Assembly (NCBI GenBank): GCA_052327205.1
Contig: CM126204.1
Span: 43,090,001 to 43,154,000 of the forward strand
DNA: 64,000 nucleotides
Reading direction: 5' to 3'
DNA from: Somniosus microcephalus
Lineage: Eukaryota
In this document: in pieces, positions 13,832 through 63,753 of the stretch
Position numbering within the stretch: position 1 is the first letter of the stretch
How the letters are laid out: each line of letters opens with the position of its first letter
Translations under genes and position numbers: made by a program
Notes under the pieces: generated by a model
What the model saw: only the letters and a program-made list of their open reading frames with translations
What the model was told of the DNA's origin: nothing
Database searches by the model: none

Positions 13832-16800
13832 TGTAGTGTCCGGGTATCAATAATACTCGGACTGCAGGAGAACAATAAAACAGGTATTTACTGAACAGAG
13901 GGTAACTCAAGACTGAAGTACAGAAGCCTGCTAGGGCTTTTTATACAGATGTGGTCACTGCCGGTACTGCAGTATAAAATCAGTTCTTCTCTTAAAGGTA
14001 CATACACAACAATTCCTCCCCTTTTAGATAAACAGTACATAACATTCATTTAACAACCAAATAATAACTAATTACAATTACAATTTTCTCTATTATATAC
14101 ATCAACTGAAATAATTATTTATAAGTTCAGTCTTTGAGGAGGCTTCCTGATCCTGACTGGATAGCGCCTTTCTCGAGTATCCTGTTCTTGCAGCGGAGTC
14201 GATTCTGGCTCATTGTCATTGGTTGGTTCGTCAGCTTCCAATACCACTGCTTCTGAGGTAGATGCAATCTGTACTTCGGGTTCATTACCAGGTGCACATG
14301 CTCGTGGCATAGGTTTGGCTTGTTCCTGTGACTCTAGAATCTGGTCAGCATGGCGTCTCACGATGCCCTCTCCAACATCCACTGTGTACATTAGTGGCCC
14401 CTGCTGTGTGCATATCGTTCCTGGCTGCCATTTTTCTGTTCGGTAGTCGCGGGCCAAGACTGGTTGCCCTATCTTGAAGCTCCTGGTTGGCTTCTCATTT
14501 ATGTGCTGGAATTGCTTATCCTCAACATCTCGTCTTATGTTTGGTTTGAGCAAATCCAGGCGACATCTTAGCCTTCGGTTGAAGAACATTATGGCTGGAG
14601 CTAGGTTGGTGACTGCATGTGTCGCATTCCGGTAAGCAAACAAGAAATTATCTACCTTGTGTTGTAGTGGTATGTCGTCGTTATACATCGCCTTTATTGC
14701 CTTTTTAAAGGTCTGAACAAACCTCTCAGCCAATCCATTTGTGGCTGGATGGTATGGGGCAGATGTGTAATGTTTCACCCCATTATTCCTCAGAAACCTC
14801 CGGAAATCTTCGGACACAAACTGTGGCCCATTATCGGAGCAAATCTGTTCTGGCAAGCCATTCCTGGTGAAGATGGTCCGTAGGACTGCAATAGTTTTCT
14901 CCGTGGTGGTGGAGGACATTTTGATGACCTCTGGCCATTTCGAATGGGCATCCACGGCGATTAGAAACATTCAGTCCATAAATGGACCAGCAAAATCAAT
15001 GTGTACCCATTGCTATGGAGATGAGGGCCACTCCCATGGGTGTAGAGGGGCCTGTGGTGGTGCATTTTGGACTTTCTGACATCCTGAGCAGCTCTTGGTC
15101 AGGTCCTCGATTTGTTTATCGATTCCCGGCCACCACACTTAAGCCCTGGTTAGGCTTTTCATTTTTACCCCTCCCAGATGACCCTCATGAAGCTCATTGA
15201 GCACTCTGTCTCTCAACTTGGGTGGAATTACCACTCGGGATCCACACATCAAGGTCCCCCGGCACACTGACAGCTGTTCTCTCCTTGGCAAGAATGCTGG
15301 CAACAGTGAGTCGCCATGTGCTGGCCATCCCTTCACCGTCAAATCATAGACCCGAGAGAGTATCGGGTCATTTCGGGTTTCTTTCTCTATACTTGAGTTT
15401 GTAACGGGCAGACATTCGACTATGGTCGCATGGAATATCTCAACAGGGTCCACTGCAGGTGCTTCCTCTACCGTAGGCAACATCTCAACAGGGTCCACTG
15501 CAGGTGCTTCCTCTACCGTAGGCAACGGTAGGCGCGACAGCCCATCAGCATTTCCATGCTGTTTCGTACCCTTGTACTCTATGTCGTACTGATGTGCCCC
15601 TAGAAAAGGTGACCATCTTTGCAGCCGTTGTGCCGTCATCACTGGAACGCCCTACTTTGGGTTAAAAATGGAGACCAGGGCTGATGATCAGTCAGTAGGG
15701 TGAATTTCAGCCCGTGCAGATAGTGATTGAACTTCTTCACCCCCCACACCAGGCTGAGGGCCTCCCTGTCAATCTGGACGTAGTTACGCTCGGCTGAGGT
15801 TAACGAGCGCGACGCAAAGGCTATTGGCCTCTCTGAACCATCAAGGAATTTGTGTGACAGCACCGCTCCAATGCCGTAGGGAGACGCATCACATGCCAAC
15901 CGAATCGGTAGTGTTGGGTTGTAGTGGGCCAATACTTCTTTTGAAGTGATTAGGCATTTACATTTCTGAAAGGCACGCTTACACTCATCACTCCATTTCC
16001 ATGTTACTCCAGTTTGCAGTAGAGCGTTCAGTGGGTGCAGAATTGTAGATAAATTCGGCAAGAACTTATGGTAGTAGTTCACCAACCCAAGAAACGACCT
16101 CAGTTGCGACACATTTTCCGGTGCTGGAGCCTTGACTACAGCCTCAATCTTGTCTGGCGACTTATGCAACCCTTCCTCATCAATCATGTGGCCACAATAC
16201 GAGATTTGTCTCCTGAAGAACTCGCATTTGGGGCGGTTGGCTCGTAGCCCATATTCCTGCAATCTAGTGAGCACCTGCTCCAGGTTGGCAAGGTGTTCAC
16301 TGTCATTTTCGCCCGTAACCAGGATGTCGTCCAAATAACACTGGGTCCCCGGGATCCCTTGCAGGACCGCCCTCTGCCAAATAGCCGGGGCTGATGCTAC
16401 CCCGAATACCAGTCGATTGTACTGGTAAAGGCCTTTGTGAGTGTTTATCGTGAGGTATTTCCTAGATGCTTCTTCCACCTCCATTTGTAGATACGCTTGG
16501 GCCAGATCAATCTTCGTAAAGCGTTTCCCTCCAGATAGTGAGGCGAAAATATCTTCTATCCGTGGAAGAGGATATTGTACTGTGTGCAGGACTGGGTTCA
16601 CAGTTACCTTGAAGTCCCTACAGATGCGAACCTTCTTCGGCTCCCCAGGCGTGCTGCTCAATGATTTCTTCATTACAGGAACGATGGGTGTGGCCCACTC
16701 ACTCCAGTCCACCTTGGACAGCACACCTGAATGCTCCAGACTCTCCAGTTCTGCTTCAACGGCTAGGCGGATCGTGTACGGTACCGGTCTGGCCTTAAAA

Positions 16801-18669
16801 ATTTTTGGGTTTGCGTTATCTTCGATTTTTATCATTGCCTTTACTCCTTTTAGAGTCCCAAGTCCTTGTTGGAACACCTCTTTCGTTTCAGTTAGAACTT
16901 TTGACAGTCATCCAGGTGTGACGTCATCACCCTTTTTGTCAGTCACAGTTAGTGTCTGAATGGAATGCCAATCCAATTGTATTTTTCGGATCCATTCACG
17001 TCCCAATAATGGTGGTCCTCCATCTTGTAGTATACATAGATACAGTTTCTGTGTTTCCTTGCTGTTGTATTTAACTGGCACCCTTATTTTTCCTCTGGGG
17101 TAGACTTTTTGCCCCGTGTATGTCTTCAATACAATGGACGTGTCCTTTAAGGGTATGTGTGAGAATAGCCGCTCATAGTCTCGTCGATTCATGACAGTTA
17201 GGGCTGATCCTGTATCCAATTCCATCTTTACTTGGGACCCTGCTATCATGAGGGTGACCCAAATGGTTCGGTGATCCTCCTTTGCGATCATGTTGTGTAA
17301 CTTTAGACAACTTAGTCTCCTGCTCCCAGCATCATTATCACTCTCCTGATCTTCCGAACTACTGTCTGTCATTTTTTTTACTTTCTTGTACTTTTCCTTA
17401 GTAGTTGTTGTAGTGTTGGTTTTCTGTTGTATTTCCGCAGCTCCCCGTGCTGCTGCTTCGTAGGATACTGCCACGCTGAAAGCCTGTTCTAGCGTCAGGT
17501 CCTTTTCCGAAAGTAGTAGTTTCTGGTTTCCTTCACTCTGGAGCCCGCAGACAAACTTATCCCGTAAGGTGTCTGCCAGTCCTGCTCCGAACTGGCAGTG
17601 CTTCGATAACTTGCGTAGTTCCGTAAGATAGTCAGCATTGTTCTCATCTTTGTGCTGGTTTCTTTTATGGAACTTGAATCTTTCTGCTATCAGCAGCGGT
17701 GTAGGGTTTAGGTGTTCCTGTAAGATATTAACAATCTCTTCAAAACTTTTCTCCATTGGTTTAGCTGGGGTAATTAAATTCCGCAATAGGCCGTACGTTC
17801 TCGCGCCCATCAAATTTAATAATACCGACGCCTTCTTTCCATTGGCCACCTCGTTGGCATTGCAGTACACTTCAATTCTTTCCACATACGTGGTCCAGTC
17901 TTCTACCTCATTGTCGAAAGCAGTGATACTGCCACTCTTCGGCATCTTGGGTGATTTAAAATGGCGCCTCCCGCGCTTTTTCTTCTTCCCCAATGGAATA
18001 AAATGGCGCCTCCCACGCTTTTCCTTCTTCCCCTTGCTGCCACGCTGCTCCTAGCGTTCTACAGGGTAATGGCGGCAACCCGTGGCTTCGGCGCGTCTCA
18101 CTTTTCCTTCCCCGCGTTCTATCCTCTCCACGCTGCCCGGTTCTTGAGCACCGACTGCGCCCTGTGCGCTCCACCCTCTTTCTCTCTCTTCCTCCCGACG
18201 ACGCTGCACGGCCCCTTTGCAGAGCCGCTCGATCGAGCCCGAGCCCGCCGCAGTCCAGAAGGGTCAGCGCACTACCTGCTACCAGCACGACTTGCTGGAA
18301 CACCTCGACTGGGGAGCCAGGCCCAGCTCTCCACAGCCTCCCCTGCAACTCTCCGATTGATCCCTGGGCAGTTGCCCGTGGTCGACGCCCGCCGTTCTGA
18401 CTTCGACCTCCAAGAAGCTTCTCTTCAGGGAAAAGATCCCCGTGAGGTGATGCAGTACTGCAGGTGAGTTCAAACCTGCCCGTCGCCAGTGTAGTGTCCG
18501 GGTATCAATAATACTCGGACTGCAGGAGAACAATAAAACAGGTATTTACTGAACAGAGGGTAACTCAAGACTAAAGTACAGAAGCCTGCTAGGGCTTTTT
18601 ATACAGGTGTGGTCACTGCCGGTACTGCAGTATAAAATCAGTTCCTCTCTTAAAGGTACATACACAACA
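13832..18669 (-). mobile_element. Ty3/Gypsy (Mag-like) LTR retrotransposon, near full length, frameshifted
   Basis: 180-bp LTRs at 13832-14011 and 18490-18669 (TG..CA, 3 differences by eye); target-site duplication (TSD) ATTAC; PBS TGGCGACG; PPT AAGGGGAGGA. Confidence 0.96.
14119..17946 (-). pseudogene. Gag-protease-RT-RNase H-integrase polyprotein, broken into several ORFs
   Basis: Gag (ERFKFHKRNQ), protease (LDTGS), RT (YLDD), RNase H (DASPYGIGAVL), integrase (SDNGPQF, HPATNGLAERFV). Confidence 0.93.
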
Positions 18670-18872
18670 ATTACAAGGATGAAAAGAGTGACGAGACGAT
18701 AGCCACTTTGTCTTGATCCATGAATATTAATGCAGAGAGAGAGAAAAAAGAACAAATCTCATTTGGTGTCCAGTGTGGCGTAATGCTGACGTCAGTGGTG
18801 CTGCGTGGTAAATATCCTCATCAGTAGTGAACTGGTAGTGATATTGTAACAAGTTTTTCAATACTATCAGTG

Positions 18873-30769: not shown

Positions 30770-31666
30770 CTGTTTCTCTCTCCACGGATGCTGCCTGGCC
30801 TGCTGAGTATTTCCAGCATTTTCTGTTGTTATTTCTGGCATTTTAACAACCTGCTGCTGAAGGACGAGCGGTTCCGGGATTCGTTTTGTCGGTTCTGGGC
30901 CGACTGGAGAAGGAAGCTAGGGGGCTTTCCCTCCTTGAGGCTACGGTGGGATGTGGGCAAGGCTCACATCTGTCTCTTCTGTCAGGAGTACGCAAGGGGT
31001 TCGACCAAGAGGCGGGAGGCCCAGGTCGGGCGGTTGGAGAGGGAGGTGCTCGACCTGGAGTCCCGTCTCGGTCAAGTTGTCGAGGACTCGGCCCTGCGGA
31101 AGGTGTATGAAGAGAAGAAGGGCACATTGAAGGACCTGCAGCTCGTTGGGTCCCGAGGCGCGTACGTGAGGTCACGGATCCAGTTCCTCCGGGACCTGGA
31201 CCGCGGTTCCCCCTTCTTCTACTCGCTGGAAAAAAGACGGGGTCCGTAAGCAGCTCTTGGGGCTGCTGGCCGACGACTGATCTCTGGTCTCGGATCCGGA
31301 GGGGATCAGCGTGGAGACCCAGCCCTATTATGGGGCTCTGTTCTCTCCGGATCTGTCCAGCGAGGATGCGCGCAGAGTTTTGTGGGAAGACTTGCCGAAG
31401 ATCGGCCCGGAGAGCGCCGAAAATCTGGACGCTCCGCTAAGCTTGGCGGAGCTGATCGGCGCCTTCGGCCAGCTCTCGAGGGGAAAGTCCCCGGGGCTGG
31501 ACGGGCTGACCGTGGAGTTCCACAGGGCATTCTGGGACTACACGCGGGTCCTGGGGGAAAGTTTGGCGACCGGGGAGATGCCCCTCTCTTGTCATTGTCC
31601 TGCTGCCCAAGAAGGGCGATCTCCGCCTATTAAAAAACTCGCACCCGGTCTCCCTCCTCAGCACAG

Positions 31667-32024
31667 TGTGATGAAATATGCCATTCATCAGGCACTCTGT
31701 ATTCTCTGTGTTTGATTGTGCCTGTGACTGTGACAAGCAGGGGAGCCTAGTTTCAGTTTCATTTCCTTACCTGTATTGTATTGTGTGTAGGGCTCCGCCC
31801 ATACCTGGCCCCTACTTAAGCAGGCCCCAGCGTGTCTCACAGGCAGTACAGCAGATCTCTGGATGAGAGACACTTCTCCACTGTGTATTACTTTCTGAGT
31901 TAATAGAAGCCTTGCTTTGCTCCGTTAACGTTGAGTCTCGGATTCATTGAGGCACATCAATTTTATTAACTCAGAAAGTAATACACAGTGGAGAAGTGTC
32001 TCTCATCCAGAGATCTGCTGTACT
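31667..32024 (+). mobile_element. Single Gypsy LTR (31667-31959) followed by an inverted copy of its own R region
   Basis: TGTG..ATCA ends; TATA-like TACTTAAG at 31813; 31961-32024 is the reverse complement of 31845-31908 (63/64); interrupts Tx1 RT with no TSD. Confidence 0.85.
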
Positions 32025-34849
32025 TTTTTGCCACGGCCATGTCTGCCCGCCATGGCACCGTGCTGGCCCACATGATCCACCCCGACCAGTCCTACACGGT
32101 CCCGGGCTGGACCATCCACGACAATATCCATCTGGTCCGGGACCTGGTCCACCATTCCCAGAGGGCTGGTCTGTCGGTCGCCTTCCTTTCCCTGGATCAG
32201 GAGAAGGCGTTTGACAGGGTGGATCACGAGTATCTTTTCGGAACTCTGCGTGCATGCGGGTTCGGGATGCATTTCGTCGCCCGGATCTGATTGATGTATG
32301 CCGCCGCGAAGTGTCTGATAAAAGTTAACGGGTCTTTGACGGCGCCCCTTCGGTTCGGGAGAGGAATGCGTCAGGGATGCCCCATGTCCGGTCAGTTATA
32401 TGCCATCTGCGTGGAGCCTTTCCTGCGCCTCTTGCGGAAGAGGTTGTCGGGACTGGCTCTGCAAGGGCCGGGCATGGAGGTCGTCCTCTCGGCTTACGCT
32501 GATGACATGCTCCTCACGGTCACGGATCCCGTCGACTTGCGGAGGATGCGGGAATACCAGCAGATTTACTTGAACGCATCCTCCGCCAGGATCAACTGGG
32601 AGAAATGTTCTGGACTCCTGGTGGGCCAGTGGCGGGTGGACTCCCTGCCGGAGGAGTTCAGGCCTTTCGCCTGGAGCTCCACGCACCTCCTCTACTTGGG
32701 AGACTACATTAGCCCCGCCGAGGACGCCTGGCCGGCGAACTGGCAAGAGCTGGAGGCCAAAGTCACTGCTCACCTGGACGCTAGACAGGACTGCTCCGAG
32801 TGTTCTAAACCAGCTGGTGGCTGCCATGTTGTGGTACTGGTTGGTCACTTTGATCCCTCCCCCTGTATTTGTCGCCAAGATGCAGAAGAAGCTCATCAAC
32901 TTCTTCTGGGACAAAAGGAAGCACTGGGTCTCTGCCGCGGTTCTGAGTCTCCTGCTTAGGGAGGGCGGTCAGGCGCTGGTGTGCCTTCACACCCGGGCGG
33001 CGACTTTCCGTCTTCGGACGCTGCAGAGATACCTGTACATCAAGAATCCTCCTCGATGGTGTGCGTTGGCGACGTATTTCTTCCGTCAGCTGCACGGCCT
33101 CAATTACGACATGCAGCTCCTGTTTGTGAAAGTGGGCGGTACACGTGCCTGCCTGCGGGAGCTGCCTGTCTTCTACCAGGAACAGCTATGGGCCTGGAAC
33201 AGTGTTGCCTCCAGGTGGAGTCCTCCCCTGTCAGGAGTGGCGGCTGTCCTTCAGGAGCTTCTGCTCAGGAATCCGCACCTCCACGACCACCGGCTCAGGT
33301 GGCTGGTGGAGGGCAGGGCTGTGCATGGTAGGGTGACTAGAATCAGGGACCTGCTCGATGGCGGAGGAGCGGGCTGGATGGCGCCAGAAGAGCTGGCGCA
33401 GCGCCTGCCCTCCACCAACGTCAGCCTCTTGGCCAAAGCCATCGAGTCGCTGAAAGCAGAATTGGGCCCTGACTCCACTAGGTGTATCGAGGAGGCTCAA
33501 GCATGTCGGGCGATCCCGTCCGAACTGACCCCCGTTCGGACAGAATTCCTCATCGGCGCGCGGCCCCGAAACTCTTCTCGGGAACCGGCACCTCACAACT
33601 TGAGCCGTCTCGGTGAAATACCTTCAGTGCGGAGGCGGAGGTTCCCAATGGAGGGCTCTCTATGCGGGAGTCCTCCCCTTTTCTATTGGGGACTTGGCCT
33701 GGTGGGTGTTGCATGGAGCAGTCCCGTGCAATAAAATGTTAAGTAGGTTCACGGACTCCCAGGCCGCCTGCCTCTTTTGTGGCCTAGAGGAGTCCATGTT
33801 TCATGTTTATATAGAATGTCAGAGGTTGCAGCCCCTGTTCCATTACTTGAAGGGGCTGCTCCTTGATTTTTGGCTGCACTTCAGTCCCACGCTCCTGATC
33901 TTCGGTCACCCGATGCGGAGGGGAGCGGGCAGGTCGGAGGACCTCCTCGTAGGACTGCTTCTGGGCCTGGCCAAAGTGGCCATTAACAAGTCCACGCAGC
34001 GGGTGGTCGAGGGGGTCGTTCGGCCCGATTGCCTGCCTCTCTTCTGCGGCTATGTTCACGCCCAGGTGGCCCTGGAGATGGAGCACGCGGTGTCCGCCGG
34101 CACACTCAAGGCCTTCCGCGACCAGTGGTCGCCGCGGGGACTGGAGTGCATCATCACCCCGGCAAACCAAATTTTAATTTAATTTGTTAAGTTTTATTTA
34201 AAATTCCATTAATTTACAGTCAATTGGTTCTAACCAAAAGAGCACCCCAGCTGTGATCAGTTGTTTCAGCACGAAATAAAGATGGGACCTTCCTGCTGAA
34301 TGTGGCTCAGTACCATTTATCAGCGGAGGCAGAGGGAGTGTTGGTGATGAGTTTTAATAATCGATCACAAATGGTCAATATAATCTGTACCAAAGGAGTT
34401 AAACACAAAGCAGATGCTGGCTCTCATAAGTGCATTTTTTGAATACAAATTAAATACAATATTAATTAAAATGAATAGTCTTGTACAGCATATAGAACAT
34501 TAATTATACATGCAAATGTTTGGGTAATAACACATTATAACTTGCATTTGATTATGATCTTTGCAGTACACGTATCCTCTGAGCACCACTTGAATACAAA
34601 GGTAATTTAGGTAATTACATCAAGTACCTTTTGATGTGCTGCTCAAATCTTCACAGTGCACAATTCTGTCCCTTGTCACTTGGCATCATTATGTGTGCAG
34701 CGCGCTAACCATAAGATGAAAATTCATGTGTTATGCAGTTATTGCTGGAAGCTACCTGATAGCATGGCGTTGTTAGTAAAGTTGAATATTCAGCAAGTTC
34801 AGCTTCGAGCGTGGCGACGTTTAAGTGGGGCCCTCCAGCTGATTAAGGC

Positions 34850-51016: not shown

Positions 51017-54000
51017 CGTAATGTATTATCACATGGTTTGTCACATGGTTTAGTATTAGCATGCTCAGTTCGCTCTGGCCTAGTTTACAAGCACCTTGAC
51101 TAGCAACTCATCGTATCTCTGTTCTTCATTTGTTCTACCCACATATATTACATTTTTGGTGACGAGAATGGGATCCAAAAGCCATTTTTAGGGATCATGG
51201 AAGGACAGTGTTCAACCTTCGAGTGGAAAAGTTGAAGGTACACAGGTAGTGGGCTGAGTCAGTTTGATGGGATCGGGACAATAATGGACAATCGGGATTC
51301 ATCGGCAGCCTGGGCATGTATGACCGAGCTCGCAAACCATTCAGTTCTTGCATTGAGCGGATGGAGATTTTTTTTAAAGGCCAATAACAACATTATTGAG
51401 ACCGAAGGTGCAGATGAGAATGTTCAAGCTCATAATACCGTAATTCGTGAATGGAAAAAAACAATTTTTCTAACGGGGATCGGGCCAGATGTCTACGAAA
51501 CGTTGTCAAACCTACTTGCGCCAGGGAATGCGAATGATGTGTCGTTTGAAGACATTGTCGAGAAATGAGGACCATTTTGACCCAAAGCCATTAGAAATAG
51601 CAGAGAGCTATAAGTTTGGTACCAGAAACAAAGTGAAACCATCAGTGAGTACATTGTAACTCTTAAAAATCTGTCTTTGCATTATAACTTCGGCTCATTT
51701 TTGAATCGTGTGTTGTGAGATAAATTTGTGTGTGGACTGGTGGATGAGCGCACACAGTCGAAATTACTGAACACTCCGAACCTAATATTTGACATAGCAT
51801 GCAAAATTGCCCTATCTATGGAGATGGTGTCTAAGAATACTCGGGAGCTCCATCCAACTCAAGTGACTAGTGCAGCTGAGGTCTACAGTCACAAAGCCAA
51901 ACCTAAAGTTGTGAGACCGAGTCAAAAGCATGTCAGTAAGAGCAGTTCAGTGAATTGTTATCGCTGCAATGGAAATCACTCACCACAGACCTGCCAATAC
52001 AAAAATGTGAAGTGTTTTCACTGCCAGAAGCAAGGCCATATTTCAACAGCTTGCAGAGCTTGATCTAAAGCAGGAAGTAAGAACCATTCTAGTGGCAATG
52101 CAAAGCAGTGACAACAAAAGGGAGGCGTTCACAATATTGAAGTGAACACACATGATGTTGAAGAACTAGGCATATACAGTATCTATTCCGCTAGCAGTTG
52201 TGAGAAAGATTGCCGTACAAAACTTTTGATCAATGAGCAATATATTGATGTGTATCGACATGGCGGCGGACTGCTCTATCATGAGTAAGGACACAGAGGA
52301 GAGTAAGTTTAATCAAATACCACTTACAAAGAGTACCGTAGAGTTAAAAACCTACTTCGGAGAAAACCCAGAGACGTGGACAAATGGAACGTACAGTTCA
52401 ATGCAATGGCCAGTCAGTAAAGCTGCCTATTATTGTAGCGAGCTACAACAACAAGCCAACTCTCAGGGGCAAAGACTGATTCAGAAAGTTAAAACTAGAC
52501 TGAAAAAACACCTTCAGTGTAGATACTTCAAAGAAGCAACTCGACACAAAGCTGAACAAGTACAAAAGCATGTTCTCAGACAGTTATGACGCGCATATCC
52601 GTATCAAGTCCAACGCGAAGCCTGTCTATTGTAAGGCAAGGCTGGTCCCCTATGCGTTGAAAAGTCAGGATGAGGAAGAGCTAGAGAAACTGACAGAGAA
52701 CGGAGTGCTAGTGAAAACTGACAAAATGAATGGGCTACCCTGCTTGTGGTAGTGCCCAAAGCAGACAAAACTGTACGCTTGTGCGGTGACTACAAAGTTA
52801 CTATCAACCAAGCAGTTGACGATCAGCAGTGCTCGTTACCTACATCGCAAGATTTGTATGCAGCCCTCTCTGGGTCAAAGGTTTTCTCTAAGCTTGACCT
52901 GTCGCACGCTTACAAAGATCGAAAGAAACTACGAGCAAATGGAAAAGGAAGCACTCGCCATAGTGTTTGGAATCAAGAAATTCCAACAGTTCCTGATCAG
53001 CAGAAAGTTTACCCTGATAACCGATCACAAACCACTCCTAGCAATATTGGGGCCCAAATCTGCCATCCCTGCAATGGCCACATCAAGAATACAACATTGG
53101 GCAGTGTTGTTGTCACAATATGACGACATGATTGAATGTCGCACTTCAAAGCAAAACGCAATCACAGCTACCTTGTCCAGGTTGCCACATGAAGACTTGT
53201 GTTGGGAGTGAAGGTGAGATTTTCACACTAGGTGCAGTTGACAAAGACCTTCCCGTGAATGCAACTGAGATTGCAAATGAGACTCGAAAGGAATCCGTAC
53301 TGAAAAGAGTGTATGAAAACACCTTGAATGGATGGACTGATGAGTGTGTGGACACAGAACTGAAACCATTCCATAACCGTCGTACTGAATTGTCTTGTGA
53401 GCAAGGTTGTATCCAGTGAGGCAACAGAGTGGTGGTACCTACTTCGCTGAGAGATAAAATTCTGGCCGAACTTCATACTGAACATCCTGGGATCGTCAGT
53501 ATGAAATCAATTGCAAGAAGCTTTGTTTACTGGCCTGGATTGGACAGTGACCTTGAATCACTTGTCAGCAAATGCAGCATTTGCCAAAACTGCGGCAACA
53601 AACCACCCAAAACTTCATTACAACCCTGATCATGGCCAAGTAGACATTTTCGGAGAGTACATGTAGACTTCTGTGAGAAAGCAAATGATTATTAGCTGGT
53701 ACTTGTAGATAGTCACTCAAAGTGGATTGAAGTGAAACACATGGGTTCAAATATTACAACATAGATGAGTTGAGGTCTATCTTTGCATGTCATGGCTTAC
53801 CTGAAGAGTTTGTTTCTGACAATGACCCTCAGTTCCATTCTGTTCTATTCCAAGAATTCATGAAATGGAACAGTATCAAACACTCTCGTTCCACCATATC
53901 ATCCAGCTTCAAACGGAGCAGCTGAAAGATCAGTCAGAATAGTGAAGTAAGCTCTCAAAAAGCAAGTGTTGCAGGGTTGTTCAGGACTCAGCATGAAGCA

Positions 54001-55049
54001 AAGTTTGGCAAATTTCTTGCTTAAGTACAGAACTACTCCGCACACTACAACTGGATATACCCTAGCAGAACTCTTGATGAAGAGAAGATTGAGAACACGA
54101 TGGAGTCTTGTTCAACCAAATTTGGCCTCGAGTTGAACAGAAACAGTTGAGTCAGAAACATTATTATGACAGCAATTAGAAAGAACCCAGTTGCAAACAA
54201 AACGAGTGTGTTCATGTTCTCAGTCCCCTGGAAAGTCGAGTTCACACATGTGGGATGTAAGAACCATAGTAGAGGTTGGTGGAACCAAGAGATATTTGGT
54301 TGAAATTGATGACGACATCCGAAGTGTTCATGTAGATCAAATGATCTCTGCTAGAGATGAACCAAGACGTGATCTTCAACCACTTGATCATAAACTGATA
54401 CAGGAGTTTGACTCAGTTCAGACTTCAGTAACTGAAGTTCCAGGTTCAAACAAGTCTGAGATAGAAACAGGATCATCTTTGAGTTCGGAACCGAAACAAA
54501 ACAGCCCGGAAATTGGTTCAACACCAAAACCTTCTTGGGGATCAGGAAAGCTCCACAAACCTGTTATTGAACTGGATTTGTAGTTCATGTTTTTAAAAAA
54601 GCCAGGAGTTTTTGTTATGTGGTACATGTAATGCTGGGAAAGGTGGGACCATAGTTTTGTTGTATTTGAAAGGAGAATACATTTGTTTTTTTTAAGGGGA
54701 AAGCAGTGTAATGTATTATCGCATGGTTTGTCACATGGTTTAGTATGAGCATGCTCAGTTCGCTCTGGTCTAGTAAACAAGCACCTTGACTAGCAATTCA
54801 ACGTGTCTCTGTCCTTCATTTGTTCTACCCACATATATTACATTTTTGGCGATGAGAATGGGATCCAAAAGCCATTTTTAGGGATCATGGAAGGACACAG
54901 CGTTCAATCTTCGAGCGGAAAAGTTAAAGGTGTACAGGTATTATGCTGAGTCACTGTTCGATGGGATCGGGACAATCATGGCCAACCGGGATTCATCGGA
55001 AGCCTGGGCATGTATGAATGAGCTCGCAAACCATTCAGTTCTTGCATTG
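51017..55049 (+). mobile_element. Decayed Ty3/Gypsy (Mag-like) element plus the start of a second tandem unit
   Basis: 136-bp LTRs at 51017-51152 and 54707-54842 (about 10 differences); PBS TGGTGACGAG; PPT AAGGGGAAAG; gag zinc knuckles; RT core deleted near 52913; PBS and leader repeated at 54843-55049. Confidence 0.92.
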
Positions 55050-57177: not shown

Positions 57178-58631
57178 GCATAGTGGTTATTTGTGAAATT
57201 GCCTGAATCGTTTTTGATTCCGTTAACAAAATTTAACTATATCCTCGCCGTAAATCCCCATTTTGGTGTAAACCGCTTTACAACTCTCTGTACTGTCTTA
57301 TGAGGTTTTATGTTAACAAATGTAAAAATGAAAAGCACACAAGTGTCCAAAAGATTAATTGGTCAGCTAACCCCCGTCATGTAAAGAGCTTGAATAATAG
57401 CAAATCAAGCGAAGGACCTTGACAGTATTAGCACAGAAGTGTCCACAATGACCCTATCAGCTCAGCAACAGAACTCATTGTTGGCTGCCACTAGACCAAT
57501 TTGTTGAAGATATTCTGGCGTTTATGATTCGGCTGTAAACATGAAATAGGTTGAAGTCGCTTCTGGGTGATATTGCTCTGTACCTTTACAAACACTGTAA
57601 ATTGGTCTAGGAATACATTGTTGTTCATATCCCTGTACCTGAATGCCTTTGACTCTTGTTTCAAAGATTTTGCTGTTGGCAAAATATGTGAGCTACCCTC
57701 TCACTAACTTACACTAAAGGCCCGATTTTAACACCCCCGTGCCCGAGGCGAATGGGACATGCCAGGGGTATAAATATCGGCAGCGTGGCACTCGCCTTGT
57801 CCACGCCACACTTGCGCCCTGTGCCATTTTTGACTGGTGCATTTTGGGCAACGTGCAAGGCCCTCGCCCCAGGAGGCCTCATTGACATGCAAAAGTCATG
57901 GCCGAGTGACGTCACTCAGACCCCGGCATTGTTTTAACCCCAGGTTGTGTGATCTGCACACGTGCTAATCGCACCAGGGGAAGCTAACTTGCAGGGGACT
58001 GACATCATCATAGTCTAATAGAAATGGGTGGGTTATTGATTCTGCTGTCAGATAAAGGTCTCCTGCTACAGCAAGCTAAATCGGCAGGGAGCTCGTCCCA
58101 CACATTCTGCATTATCTACTAATAAAAACAGAAAATGCTGGAAATACTCAGCAGGTCAGGCAGCAGCTGTAGAGAGAGAAACAGAGTTAACGTTTCAGGT
58201 CGATGACCCTTCGTCAGAACTGGAAAAGGTTGTTAAGCAAGTGTAGGGGCAGGGAAAGGGGGGAGGGGAGGAAAGAACAAAAGGGAAGGTCTGTGATAGG
58301 GTGGAAGGCAGGAGAGATTAAAAGACAAAAGGGACGATGGTGCAAGGCAAAAGGAGATGTGATACGCTTATCAATTACTTCATAAAAGGTGATGAGTCGA
58401 AGAAGAGATGATGAGTCGAAAGAAGAGATGAATAAGGCTTTTATTAGCTAAGAAGAGACCATGCTTCTTCGTGAGTGACTGAACAAGTCTGAACGAAACC
58501 CACACAGTGGTGGGTGGAGTCAGCTGAGGCATGCCTCCATACACAGCGCCACCCAGAGGTGGCAATATACAATACAGTGGTTTACCACATTCACCCCTTG
58601 TTTAATGTGAAGTCCGGCGGGGTGAAGGGTA

Positions 58632-61010
58632 CTACAAGTTAAATCTATCAGGAGGCCTTGTCTGACGTCCTGATCGTCGTGGTGGCGGCGGTGGTGTTAC
58701 AGCATCCGACGTCGGGTCTGGTGTCTGGGTGGTTGGCGAAGATTCCTGGGGCTTTGGCATGCCGTCTGCAAGGGTTGGGTTGGGAGGGGTGGTGGGGGAT
58801 AACAGTGGTAAGGGGGATAACGGTGGTAAGGGGGATAACGGTGGTAATTCAGGGGTACCCGAGGGTGCGAGATCTCGTATGGAGACCGTGTCCTCCCGCC
58901 CGTCTGGGTATGTCACCCAGGCATACTGGGGGTTGGCGTGTAGGAGGTGCACCCGCTCGACCAGGGGGTCCGTTTTATGCGTCCTCACGTGCCTCCGCAG
59001 TAGGACGGGCCCAGGAGAAGTCAACCATGCCGGTAGCGAGGTTCCCGATGTAGACTTCCGGGGGAAAACGAACATTTTCTCATGAGGGGTCGCATTAGTG
59101 GCAGTACAAAGCAGTGACCGAATGGAGTGGAGCGCTGCAGGGAGGACCTCCTGCCAGCGGGAGGTCGGAAGGCCCTTAGATTTTAGTGCTAAGAGGACTG
59201 CCTTCCAAACCGTCGCGTTCTCCCTTTCCACCTGGCCGTTCCCCCGGGGGTTGTAACTGGTGGTCCTGCTCGTGGCGATACCTCTTGTTAGCAGGTACTG
59301 CTGAAGTTCGTCGCTCATGAACGATGAGCCCCTGTCGCTATGTATATAGCTGGGGAACCCGAACAGAGCGAAGATGTCATTCAGACACTTGATGACCGTG
59401 GTACTGGTCATGTCTGGGCAAGGGATGGCAAAGGGGAAACGGGAGTACTCATCAACTATGTTGAGGAAGTACACATTGCGGTCAGCGGAGGGGAGGGGCC
59501 CTTTAAAATCGACGCTCAGGCGTTCGAAGGGGCGGGTGGCCTTGATCAGGCTTGCTCTGTCCGGCCTATAGAAGTGCGGTTTGCACTCGGCGCAGATTTG
59601 GCAGCTCTTGGTCATGGTCCTGACCTCCTCGATGGAGTAGGGCAGGTTACGGGATTTGATAAAATGGAAAAACCTGGTGACCCCCGGGTGGCAGAGGTCA
59701 TTGTGGAGGGACTGCAGCCTATCACTCTGCGCGTTGGCGCATGTACCACGTGATAGGGCATCTGGGGGCTCATTGAGTTTCCCTGGCCGATACAAGATAT
59801 CATAATTGTAGGTGGAGAGTTCGATTCTCCACCTCAAGATCTTGTCGTTCTTGATTTTACCCCTCTGCTTATTATTAAACATAAAAGCTACTGAACGCTG
59901 GTCAGTGAGCAGGGTAAATCGTTTCCCGGCCAGGTAATGCCTCCAGTGACGCACCGCTTCTACAATAGCCTGGGCCTCCTTTTCGACGGAGGAGTGTCTC
60001 GTCTCGGGGCCCTGGAGGGTCCTTGAGAAAAAGGCCACGGGTCTGCCCGCCTGGTTAAGGGTCGCGGCTAGGGCGAAGTCGGAGGCATCGCTCTCCACTT
60101 GGAAGGGGATGGACTCATCCACCGCGTGCATTGCGGCCTTCGCGATATCGTTCTTGATAAGAGTGAAGGCTGCACACGCCTCTGGTGTCAGGGGGAAGGA
60201 GGTGGCTTTGATGAGGGGCCTGGCTTTGTCTGCATAGTGGGGCACCCACTGGGCGTAGTAGGAGAAAAACCCCAGGCATCTCTTCAGTGCTTTTTGGCAG
60301 TGGGGAAGGGGTAGCTCCATTAGGGGGCGCATTCTGTCGGGGTCGGGCCCGATGACTCCGTTCTCCACCACGCAGCCGAGGATGGCCAGGCGCTTGGTGT
60401 GAAACATACATTTTTCCTTATTGTACGTTAGGTTCAGCCGTTGGGCCGTACGGAGGAAATTTGCTAGATTAACGTCGTGGTCCTGCTGGTCGTGGCCGCA
60501 GATGGTGACGTTATCCAAATAGGGGAAGGTTGCCCGCAGCGCGTTCTGGTCAACCATTCGGTCCATCTCCCTTTGGAAGACCGAAACCCCGTTGGTGACG
60601 CCGAAGGGGACCCTAAGGAAGTGGTAGAGGCGGCCGTTTGCCTCGAAGGCAGTATACTGGCGGTCCTCATGGCGGATGGGCAGCTGGTGGTACGCTGACT
60701 TAAGGTCGATGGTGGAGAATACTTTGTATTGCGCAATCTGATTGACCATATCAGATATGCGAGGGAGGGGGTACGCGTCCAGCTGGGTGTACCGGTTTAT
60801 GGTTTGGCTGTAGTCGATTACCATGCGGCGTTTTGCAGTGGTTTTAACGACTACAACCTGGGCTCGCCAGGGGCTAGTGCTACCTTCGATAATGCCCTCC
60901 TTCAAGAGCCGCTCCACCTCAGAGCTGATAAAAGCTCTGTCCCCGGCACTGTACCGCCTGCTTTTGGTAGCGATGGGTTTACAGTCGCGGGTGAGGTTAG
61001 CGAACAGGGG
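58632..61010 (-). CDS. pol: Pol: RT, RNase H, integrase (continues from the gag-pro frame via a -1 shift)
   Basis: IDLKSAYHQ, YLDN, ESDASDFALAA, HHCC zinc finger, DFKGP..SDRG..NGQVER; no internal stops. Confidence 0.9.
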   Translation of the reverse strand, partial: PLFANLTRDCKPIATKSRRYSAGDRAFISSEVERLLKEGIIEGSTSPWRAQVVVVKTTAKRRMVIDYSQTINRYTQLDAYPLPRISDMVNQIAQYKVFSTIDLKSAYHQLPIRHEDRQYTAFEANGRLYHFLRVPFGVTNGVSVFQREMDRMVDQNALRATFPYLDNVTICGHDQQDHDVNLANFLRTAQRLNLTYNKEKCMFHTKRLAILGCVVENGVIGPDPDRMRPLMELPLPHCQKALKRCLGFFSYYAQWVPHYADKARPLIKATSFPLTPEACAAFTLIKNDIAKAAMHAVDESIPFQVESDASDFALAATLNQAGRPVAFFSRTLQGPETRHSSVEKEAQAIVEAVRHWRHYLAGKRFTLLTDQRSVAFMFNNKQRGKIKNDKILRWRIELSTYNYDILYRPGKLNEPPDALSRGTCANAQSDRLQSLHNDLCHPGVTRFFHFIKSRNLPYSIEEVRTMTKSCQICAECKPHFYRPDRASLIKATRPFERLSVDFKGPLPSADRNVYFLNIVDEYSRFPFAIPCPDMTSTTVIKCLNDIFALFGFPSYIHSDRGSSFMSDELQQYLLTRGIATSRTTSYNPRGNGQVERENATVWKAVLLALKSKGLPTSRWQEVLPAALHSIRSLLCTATNATPHEKMFVFPRKSTSGTSLPAWLTSPGPVLLRRHVRTHKTDPLVERVHLLHANPQYAWVTYPDGREDTVSIRDLAPSGTPELPPLSPLPPLSPLPLLSPTTPPNPTLADGMPKPQESSPTTQTPDPTSDAVTPPPPPRRSGRQTRPPDRFNL

Positions 61011-62461
61011 AGGGGGGGGACTTTTAATGTGGAAAGGCTGCAGGTGGTTTGCAGCGGGCGATTTAAAAGTTGTTGGTTGCAGACTGTGAGTGGGGGGAGG
61101 GGTCCACCGTATGCTAGTGTGACACTCTTAAGGTGGCACTGAAAATCCAACCCTAGCAGGACGGCAGCGCAAAGACGGGGCAGGACTAGCAGTTTAAATT
61201 TTTGATATTCAGTGCCCCCTACTGACAGGGTCACCACACAGTAGCCGCTGATGTCCATTGACTGGGACTTGGACGCCATAGAAATGCGATGGTGCGTTGG
61301 CAGAATCGTGAGGGAGTGGCTACGTACCGTGTCGGGGTGGACGAAACTCTCTGTGCTCCCGCTGTCGATCAGGCAACTGGTGGCGCGGCCGTTTACCGCG
61401 ATATCCATCATGGAGCTGGATAGATGGTGAGGGAGGGCTTGATCCAGCGTCACGGAGGCCAGTATGTGGCTTAGTGAGTCACTATAGTCATCCGCCGAGA
61501 CGGTGGTCGGTTCCGGTGACGAAATGGCGGTTGAGTGCGTTGGATACGATGGCGGCGGATGCCATGCGGCCGGGGGTACACAAAATGGCGGATAAGATGG
61601 CTGCTCCCACGGCCCGCACGCTGCGCTGCTGGCTGGCTTCCCCTTGCAGGCGTTAGCGTAATGGCCTTTCTTCCCGCAGCCCGAGCAGGTAGCTGTCTTA
61701 GCTGGGCAGTGCGCTCTGGGATGTTTTAACTGGCCACAGAAATAGCATTTTTGGGCCTGGTTACTGGGCATCGAAGCAGTTCTTACCGGAGGCTGCTGTC
61801 TCGGTTGGGTCGCTGCAGCGGTTGGTGCCGGGGGCGGCGGTCCCGTGTCCCACGGTTTCGATTGCCATGTCTCGGCGCCGTTACGGGGGTATGCCTCGAG
61901 GTTTCGGTGGGCCTCCTCTAACGAGAGCGCAAGGGCAATGGCCGTCTTCAGGTCGGGTTCCTTGCTTTCTAGCAGTCTCTGCCGGGTGTGGTCTGACTGG
62001 AGGCCCCTGACGAAGGCATCACAGGCGAGTCCCTGCGCGTGCTCCACAGCCGTTACCGCTTTACAATCGCAGTCTCTGCAGAGTGCCAGTAGCGCCCGTG
62101 CAAATGCCCCTACCGATTCTCCCGGTTGCTGCCTGCGGGATCCCAAGAGGTGTCGGGCGTAAATTGTGTTCACTGGGCGCGTATATTGCCCTTTTAGTAG
62201 CTCGAGGGCCGCCACGTACGTATTAGAGTCCCGGATTAGCATATATACTTGATGGCTCACCTGGGCGGTCAAAATTTTCAGTTTGTGATCCTCCTCTGTA
62301 ACCTGTGAGATTGCGAGGAAGGATTCAAAGCAGCTCAGCCAGTGTTCAAACTTGGCTGATGCACCCACATCTTGAGGGTCGAGGTCCAGGCGTGGTGGTC
62401 TGAGGGCTCTCAGCAATGTCTGCTGTATCCGTTGCTGTTGTTGCTCCTCAGGTGTCGCCAT
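60902..62461 (-). CDS. gag: Gag (two zinc knuckles) + aspartic protease
   Basis: CYFCGQLKHPRAHC and CSGCGKKGHYANAC; LIDSGSTESF; ATG about 22 nt after the 5' LTR. Confidence 0.9.
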   Translation of the reverse strand: MATPEEQQQQRIQQTLLRALRPPRLDLDPQDVGASAKFEHWLSCFESFLAISQVTEEDHKLKILTAQVSHQVYMLIRDSNTYVAALELLKGQYTRPVNTIYARHLLGSRRQQPGESVGAFARALLALCRDCDCKAVTAVEHAQGLACDAFVRGLQSDHTRQRLLESKEPDLKTAIALALSLEEAHRNLEAYPRNGAETWQSKPWDTGPPPPAPTAAATQPRQQPPVRTASMPSNQAQKCYFCGQLKHPRAHCPAKTATCSGCGKKGHYANACKGKPASSAACGPWEQPSYPPFCVPPAAWHPPPSYPTHSTAISSPEPTTVSADDYSDSLSHILASVTLDQALPHHLSSSMMDIAVNGRATSCLIDSGSTESFVHPDTVRSHSLTILPTHHRISMASKSQSMDISGYCVVTLSVGGTEYQKFKLLVLPRLCAAVLLGLDFQCHLKSVTLAYGGPLPPLTVCNQQLLNRPLQTTCSLSTLKVPPLPCSLTSPATVNPSLPKAGGTVPGTELLSALRWSGS

Positions 62462-62468
62462 TTAACTT

Positions 62469-62481
62469 TTAGCTAATAAAA
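62469..62481 (-). promoter_or_regulatory. Putative self-primer binding site
   Basis: Element-strand TTTTATTAGCTAA is the exact complement of TTAGCTAATAAAA in the LTR (62562-62574). Confidence 0.75.
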
Positions 62482-63753
62482 TTGATACGCTTATCAATTA
62501 CTTCATAAAAGGTGATGAGTCGAAGAAGAGATGATGAGTCGAAAGAAGAGATGAATAAGGCTTTTATTAGCTAAGAAGAGACCATGCTTCTTCGTGAGTG
62601 ACTGAACAAGTCTGAACGAAACCCACACAGTGGTGGGTGGAGTCAGCTGAGGCATGCCTCCATACACAGCGCCACCCAGAGGTGGCAATATACAATACAG
62701 TGGTTTACCACAAGATGGTAATGGGACACTGAGTATTTCCAGCATTTTCTGTTTTTGTTTCAGATTTCCAGCATCCGCAGCATTTTGCTTCTGCATTATC
62801 TACTAATCAGATCTCAGCGGCACCCAGGTGGCCTACAGAGACTTACATCAGATGTCAAATATAAGGGGGCAATTGGCACTGGTTCTCCCAGGACAGGAAT
62901 GGTAATGTGAAAGTGCCTTAACTAGACCAGTGGGCCTCACCAAATTGCAGTTATGTAGAATGTTAAATTCAAATGTGAGGGGGAACAACAAGATTATACA
63001 AAACTTTATGGTTATGGTGTGTATGTTCAGCATTGTCTTCATGCCATCTTTGTTGAGCAAACTGCATCTGTTTTGAAAGTAAAAGCCTCATTCCCCTGTA
63101 TTACACTTCACCTTCTGACATTCAAAGACCTCCTTGCGGTTACTCCTCGTGTTTGCTCCAGAACAAAGGTGCTTCATTTGCAAAACAAAGGGAGCCCATT
63201 GTTTGCTTAATAACTGCCAGAAGAAAAGACTGAAGAATGGTCACCTCTGCAGTGCCAGCACTATTTGTTCATGCAGGGAGTAGAGTCAAATGTGAGGCTA
63301 ACTGAACAGGAAAAGTTCAAGAAGCACACTGCACTCAAAACGTAAGGTGAGATACAAGAGTATGCTGATATTGGTTTTGTGCTGCATAACTGGGCAAGAG
63401 ATGTGAAGTGTTCCTTCATGTAAGTGTGAAGCTGGATTGTCTGATTAGTTGTGCTTGATAATTGTGTGTAATCAATCAGGAAAAGGGGTGGAAAACCATT
63501 ATGCCAGGTGTCTGCTCACAGAAATACATGGAGGTTACAGCATGGAAACAAACCTTTTGGCCCAACCACTCCGTGTTGGCGTTTACCCTCTGTGTTGATT
63601 TGTATGTGGGTTCAATGACGACACATTCATGAAAGAGAATGTCTTTTTATCTAAAGTATGTTCAACTCAGTTAACAGCATTACAGGAGACACCATCTTAG
63701 AGATCCATCTAAAACTAAACTAAAACTAAACTGCTTATCTCTCACATGCCCTC

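Follow-up and report, generated by a model that had tools for sequence, protein, structure and literature searches.

Sequence evidence for tRNA-independent self-priming in a Gypsy retrotransposon clade represented in Somniosus microcephalus

Background

Self-priming of reverse transcription has been shown biochemically in the fission-yeast retrotransposon Tf1, and is ascribed mainly to chromoviruses and to some plant Copia elements. Tf1 and Tf2 of S. pombe, Tj1 and the Tf1/sushi group as a whole are Ty3/Gypsy elements whose primer binding site (PBS) complements their own LTR (bioRxiv 2022.12.06.519325, PMC4600332, PMC5341516, PMC6317226, PMC7175516, PMC3601003, PMC6934838), as is the element described here. 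In the Tf1 RNA the cut falls between base 11 and base 12 (PMC7175516), and a helix beside its PBS duplex involves LTR sequence downstream of the primer, in a fold called the 'pretzel' (bioRxiv 2022.12.06.519325). Self-priming has also been predicted from PBS-LTR complementarity for the plant TAR Copia elements (Houba, Osr-1) and for Tcn1 (PMC6317226), which differ from the present element in belonging to another superfamily with plant hosts or to the chromoviruses.

The Cigr-1 clade of Gypsy is known from Ciona intestinalis and is listed in molluscs (PMC6238403). That mollusc paper contains no occurrence of 'PBS', and PMC13524379 screened tRNA-type PBSs only. Our literature search, with most subscription journals, GyDB and Repbase outside its scope, turned up two papers that mention Cigr together with Ciona and nothing about self-priming in that clade or about overshoot insertions of the kind described below, and an earlier description of either is possible.

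Here we analyse a Gypsy element on a 64,000-nucleotide stretch of the Somniosus microcephalus genome (contig CM126204.1, positions 43,090,001 to 43,154,000; hereafter the window) together with its relatives. We regard its priming as a variant of the known Tf1-type self-priming, a connection that the original prediction for this locus, made from the sequence alone, did not draw.

Results and discussion

Structure and age of the element

The element, which we assign to family F1, occupies positions 58360-62712 on the minus strand of the window. Its 5' LTR (62483..62712, 230 nt) and 3' LTR (58360..58589) are identical over 230/230 nt, a target-site duplication CATCT lies at 62713..62717 and again at 58355-58359, and a polypurine tract (PPT) is found at 58590..58603. 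Protease, reverse transcriptase (RT) and RNase H domains were all detected, as was an integrase domain. The description of a young Gypsy provirus in the original prediction stands, as does that of identical LTRs, but the domains of this copy are not intact. The gag-protease frame (60902..62461, 519 aa, with an aspartyl protease and, as judged from its sequence, two knuckle motifs of Cys/His type) and the RT-RNase H-integrase frame (58632..61127, 831 aa stop to stop, with the RT active-site motif YLDN at 60505-60520), both on the minus strand, lie in different frames, which are offset at a C-run near 61010-61020. This spot was spanned in 26 of 30 sampled F1 loci and was absent from the remaining four; 21 of the 26 have a single open frame. 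A programmed gag-pol frameshift was considered and ruled out, since most sampled copies have one frame and many homologs carry protease to integrase in one protein.

The F1 family is very young. A pattern search identified 1,640 exact F1 LTR-PBS junctions in the genome, and 23 of 30 sampled LTRs are identical to that in the window. Near-identical copies of the element (0.75-0.80 of sampled words) were also found in sequencing runs of three organisms, which suggests either close hosts or recent spread; no relatives were found in viral contigs. Some F1 elements lie in tandem with one common LTR (L033/L034 and L049/L050), with about three such pairs in the first 100 F1 matches listed.

Clade placement

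Among named protein relatives of F1, the nearest are those of rays and a catshark. In a by-eye comparison with a published RT alignment (PMC8220671 supplement 4), the F1 RT has in common with the Cigr1 row the words SPWRAQV, MVIDYS-QT, LDAYP-LP, PFGVTNGVS and PDP.R.RPL, and PFGVTNG occurs in no other row of that alignment. The element therefore probably belongs to the Cigr-1 Gypsy clade, an assignment based on these motif words rather than on a tree. No chromo family was matched in a Pfam scan of P0002 or in the domain lists of 120 homologs, so that the element is not filed in the Tf1/sushi group, though its priming appears to work alike. It differs from that group in having no chromodomain match, RT words that match Cigr1, and mostly YxDN relatives (93 of the 120 homologs, against 25 with YxDD and two with neither). 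The Cigr1 RT of Ciona intestinalis has YLDD where that of F1 has YLDN. A related family that also self-pairs, F3, has YLDD as well, and YxDN and self-pairing are therefore separable traits; a literature search for YLDN in retrotransposons returned nothing relevant.

We constructed an RT tree, midpoint rooted and without named references, from rows of this genome, metagenome contigs and the two other LTR elements of the window, leaving out L226 and L227, which contain too little RT. All 18 of 18 self-pairing rows fall in one clade, apart from the two window elements (100/100), both of which are TGG-primed Gypsy elements on a separate branch with RTs only 29-34% identical to that of F1. One locus, L230, has a 5' end of F3c type and an RT nearer to F1 (75%, compared to about 62% for other F3), and is either a recombinant or a nested copy.

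Pairing of the primer binding site with the LTR

Read along the minus strand, the 5' LTR ends in GTATCA and is followed by a one-nt spacer A (62482), the 13-mer TTTTATTAGCTAA (62481-62469), AAGTTAA and the gag ATG, which lies 7 nt beyond the 13-mer. The 13-mer, which we take as the PBS (62469..62481, minus strand), has no TGG start and is the exact complement of TTAGCTAATAAAA (62574-62562, LTR nt 139-151), a stretch of 13 nt that ends in AATAAAA; the complementarity and the missing TGG are as originally described. So is the contrast with two 'Mag-like' elements: the other LTR elements of the window (13832-18672 and 51018-54897), also of the Gypsy order and of similar size, both have TGG sites, and in a TGG element PBS-LTR pairing extends over only 3 bp. 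As a control for chance, 0 of 3,470 internal 20-mers pair over as great a length with the same LTR stretch, the best reaching 9 bp. A screen of the PBSs against tRNAs, covering only Cys and Lys tRNA loci, gave a longest shared word of 5 nt.

The polarity of the helix is that of a primer, since the LTR strand has its 3' end directed at U5. When the leader was folded from six trial start points, folding being among the checks named in the original prediction, the 13 PBS-LTR pairs had probabilities of 0.72-1.0, but the F1 leader as a whole folds no better than its shuffles (z -1.18; 27/200 shuffles as good). The spacer A is unpaired, opposite the G that follows the junction, and a one-nt spacer is present in every family listed in the comparison below.

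The core of the F1 PBS, TTAGCTAA, is palindromic. Some of the copies at L166, L177, L184, L185, L186, L190 and L171/L172 gain three letters by fold-back of the PBS, and one locus among these is a head-to-head LTR fusion through the PBS core.

Covariation across families

Families were drawn from this genome and from a set of 80 metagenome loci, restricted to those in which a gag start could be detected and the upstream DNA was long enough, and near-identical subfamilies were collapsed to 15 representatives, with L371 and L089 in place of the overshoot-inflated L226 and L090. The mean PBS-LTR run is 11.8 bp within families compared to 4.55 bp between families, and pairing of at least 11 bp is found in 11/15 own combinations and 3/210 cross combinations. 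The own-pairing mean was reached in 0 of 100,000 permutations, a count that is not a strict probability because related families share ancestry. We take as a cleaner sign the compensatory single changes between close subfamilies, which occur between F3a and F3b, between L333 and L329 and twice between F1 and F2. Covariation was one of the checks proposed in the original prediction, and pairing is indeed kept with different letters.

In families with long pairing the PBS helix spans 11-17 bp, and it ends at a conserved junction, mostly AAA/GCC. Four of the 15 have less than 11 bp of unbroken own pairing (L113 2, L123 4, L155 7, L141 9), being decayed or mismatched; with one mismatch allowed, L123 reaches 16 bp and L141 14 bp. 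None of the 15 families has a PBS starting with TGG.

The original prediction also proposed that pairing masks the 5' LTR poly(A) signal. AATAAA or ATTAAA lies inside the paired stretch in 10/15 families, so that the junction usually abuts a poly(A) hexamer, unlike in the Tf1/sushi group. It is absent from this stretch in 5/15, and in L123 AATAAA lies downstream, outside the PBS helix. Masking of the 5' signal is therefore unsupported, and is not needed to account for the pairing, but may still happen.

Comparison among families supports a second short helix just inside the PBS duplex, with the LTR end looped out. This putative inner helix starts right at the junction as GCCT:AGGC, replaced by ACCT:AGGT and ACCAT:ATGGT in two families, and its summed length over 14 families is 57 bp, compared to a shuffle mean of 39.2 and a maximum of 56 in 2,000 shuffles; the unbroken length is only 2 bp in F1 and in L226. 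In the window, the 5' arm would be GCCTTATT (62554..62561, minus strand), with a predicted partner in U5 near 62494-62486 and a bulge in F1. In its position the putative inner helix resembles the helix that adjoins the PBS duplex in the three-helix Tf1 'pretzel'.

Insertions that overshoot the primer binding site

Certain copies do not run from the PBS into gag; their PBS is continued by an antisense copy of the element's own LTR. Our search patterns fix the junction, and these overshoots therefore test what follows the junction and not where it lies.

One such copy lies in the window. The 293-nt LTR at 31667..31959 (plus strand), which the original prediction cited as sharing the architecture of the F1 LTR, does belong to a related family, F2, but is not a normal 5' LTR, as its hexamer is AATAGA and it is followed at 31961..32024 (plus strand) by a 64-nt antisense copy of itself that continues the PBS (63/64 matching). 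The copy stops at an Inr-like A (31845), 29 nt past the T of the TATA-like CTTAAG at 31815-31820. In our reading it is a plus-strand primer copy that became trapped. That the LTR at 31667 is an overshoot product in its own right was missed originally. The LTR lies, with no obvious target duplication, inside a decayed LINE RT (31400-34180), which we take to be Tx1/L1-like from its general look; a few target bases were lost instead. We ruled out that F2 naturally carries a long inverted repeat, as 26 of 30 F2 loci run from PBS into gag. In F2 as a whole, 12 overshoots exceed 23 nt. The partial overshoots end at 14, 14, 32, 40, 64 and 65 nt, the two longest stopping at TATA +28/29, and it was in F2 that the +29 spacing was noticed before other families were examined.

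All 55 F3 overshoot loci were read, comprising 31 partial and 24 full overshoots. After removal of three duplicates and L243 (no collinear LTR) from the partials, with L250 set to 17, and of ten full rows (nine without collinear LTR, one duplicate), 24 of 27 unique partials end within 48 nt, the others at 72, 133 and 182 nt. Eight of the 24 end at +27 to +32 from the TATA-like CTTAAA. A change point fits best at nt 48, the stop rate being 0.025 per nt before it and 0.0013 after, and 0 of 3,000 constant-rate simulations matched the statistic (events >20 nt). A longer DNA hairpin, released less often, could mimic part of this drop.

For F4/F5 we fixed in advance a prediction that overshoots would end at 70-76 nt. 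The 67 loci comprise five normal junctions, 50 overshoots running in full to the LTR start and 12 partials, ending at 32, 34, 39, 46, 60, 71, 71, 122, 143, 145, 150 and 164 nt, of which those at 34, 145, 164 and one at 71 resume farther along the same inverted LTR. Two ends thus lie at 71 nt and four (122-150 nt) stop or break past the predicted wall, and the prediction was weakly borne out. Extended junctions outnumber normal ones by 62 to 5 in this sample.

The F1 junctions include 41 with a letter other than A after the PBS, against the 1,640, and in 26 of the 41 this is the LTR-templated G. Among 30 of these deviant loci that were read, none has foreign sequence after the PBS; what follows is LTR in antisense, the result of fold-back at the palindromic PBS, or a single changed letter. 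Of the 26 G-class loci, 18 are short (eight with one common 17-nt junction and two with one common 63-nt junction), six extend into PPT and integrase, and two are rearranged. The farthest reach of the short overshoots, to LTR nt 89-93 if microhomology is allowed for (one event in two copies), marks 62620..62624 (minus strand) as a weak candidate transcription start, with no upstream TATA box. F3, F2 and F4 have TATA-like boxes about 75, 93 and 100 nt upstream of the junction, respectively, whereas F1 has none at the expected place.

Several F3 insertions (L234, L241, L246, L247, L252, L257) are small palindromes of the form LTR + A + inverted U3-R ending in CA with 5-bp target duplications on either side, as are L329, L336, L342 and others in F4/F5. 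A strict script found 5-bp target duplications at 14/29 of those in F4/F5, a few more being mis-parsed, and integrase has evidently accepted two U3 ends in palindromic insertions. Two complete elements whose right end is inverted showed no target duplications. The LTRs at L065, L134/L135, L235 and L251 have a short internal patch in inverted orientation between the repeat's two arms, which looks as if it came from template switching.

No RNA run was listed among the indexed runs that contain the element. Two raw RNA-seq runs chosen by species label (X7, X8) contain reads on both strands. RNA fragment ends pile up in both runs in gag, at L034:1763-1766, and not in the LTR.

Proposed priming mechanism

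The original proposal of tRNA-independent priming gains sequence evidence of two kinds, covariation across 15 families and overshoots made of element sequence only, and we consider self-priming of this clade very probable. As to what the primer is, we favour as the likely answer the whole capped 5' leader, predicted at 45-70 nt and acting in cis, where Tf1 uses a much shorter primer. The RNA would fold back so that the 11-17-bp PBS helix ends at AAA/GCC, one spacer nt after the LTR end. By analogy with Tf1, the element's RNase H would cut at this junction (62562/62561 in the window, the end of the 62562-62574 stretch being the putative primer 3' end) and leave a 3'-OH facing U5. Minus-strand DNA would then copy U5 back to the cut and jump to the RNA 3' end, with the stretch from hexamer to poly(A) site as the overlap for first strand transfer; this overlap, produced when the RNA is cut at the hexamer, would account for the usual position of the cut, at the poly(A) signal, without invoking masking. 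The genomic overshoots suggest that the primer stays attached, that plus-strand synthesis reads into it and usually resolves at the PBS, and that the copy occasionally runs to the cap, with a microhomology jump or integration following. The wall at TATA +27 to +32 is consistent with a template terminating at the cap, and hence with a primer consisting of the whole leader. In F3 and F2, the positions at which overshoots stop suggest a putative start 46-64 nt upstream of the junction.

It is unlikely, in our view, that these elements simply follow Tf1, with a transcript starting at the paired stretch, a primer of 11-17 nt, and all overshoots arising when plus-strand strong-stop DNA folds back on the LTR it contains. 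Tf1 does prime with its first 11 bases (PMC7175516), most F1 junctions are normal, and DNA fold-back accounts both for copies whose end is precisely LTR nt 1, of which many have target duplications, and for the T-class junctions at the palindromic PBS. However, such a mechanism does not predict the stop at TATA +27 to +32 that is seen in F3 and F2, and the TATA-like boxes are too far upstream for a start at the paired stretch. The overshoots match the subfamily of the adjacent LTR in all of 31 cases (0/31 discordant), which does not separate an RNA primer from DNA fold-back; discordance would have spoken for a separate RNA template.

Somewhat less probable again is a primer supplied in trans, either by another packaged RNA through its 3' R copy, or as a short capped LTR transcript that terminates at the 5' poly(A) signal and is trimmed to the hexamer. 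Overshoots that run through U3 and PPT into integrase beside a host-flanked 5' LTR (L062, L069, L070, L072, L193, L253, L282) need a plus-sense template containing the element 3' end; in F1 these (6/26) cannot derive from the 5' leader, and another template is needed. A short capped LTR RNA would also predict the same wall at the start site, and a hexamer lies at the junction in 10 of the 15 families. Against this, the conserved inner helix implies cis fold-back, five families have no hexamer at the junction, tandem arrays (L033/L034, L049/L050) can give long templates in cis, and 3'-end priming alone does not predict a wall. Full-length overshoots may come from fold-back of strong-stop plus-strand DNA, from tandem-array transcripts or from priming by a 3' R copy.

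Priming by a host RNA, be it a tRNA fragment or other, with the helix serving instead to conceal the 5' poly(A) signal or to regulate translation from the nearby AUG, is very improbable. Half-tRNA primers are known in some Copia lineages (PMC6317226), the hexamer is within the helix in 10 of the 15 families and our tRNA screen was confined to Cys and Lys. Against such priming, each family would have to find its own host RNA with the very sequence of that family's LTR, the overshoots consist only of element sequence, and in every case the helix stops one nt short of the LTR end, in the orientation that a primer needs.

Returning to the leader as primer, we can only speculate about a broader picture, whose parts are unlikely to hold all together. 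This would be a widespread animal Gypsy clade that has replaced the tRNA by an RNA with its 3' end set at the element's own poly(A) signal, the capped leader or an RNA 3' end serving, perhaps generated in trans when the host processes RNA 3' ends. Such a primer would never be removed, and its copying would yield palindromic LTR insertions with two U3 ends integrated, a fossil record of reverse transcription intermediates and start sites.

Implications

An animal clade outside the chromoviruses, present in a single genome as thousands of young copies, would add to the known cases of self-priming one that may be independent and in which a long leader seems to serve as primer. Its overshoot insertions provide evidence from the genome alone on the source and length of a primer, and lead to the prediction that transcription starts 27-32 nt after the TATA-like box and that an RNA end lies at AAA/GCC. 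Elements that prime themselves in this way would escape control by tRNA fragments.
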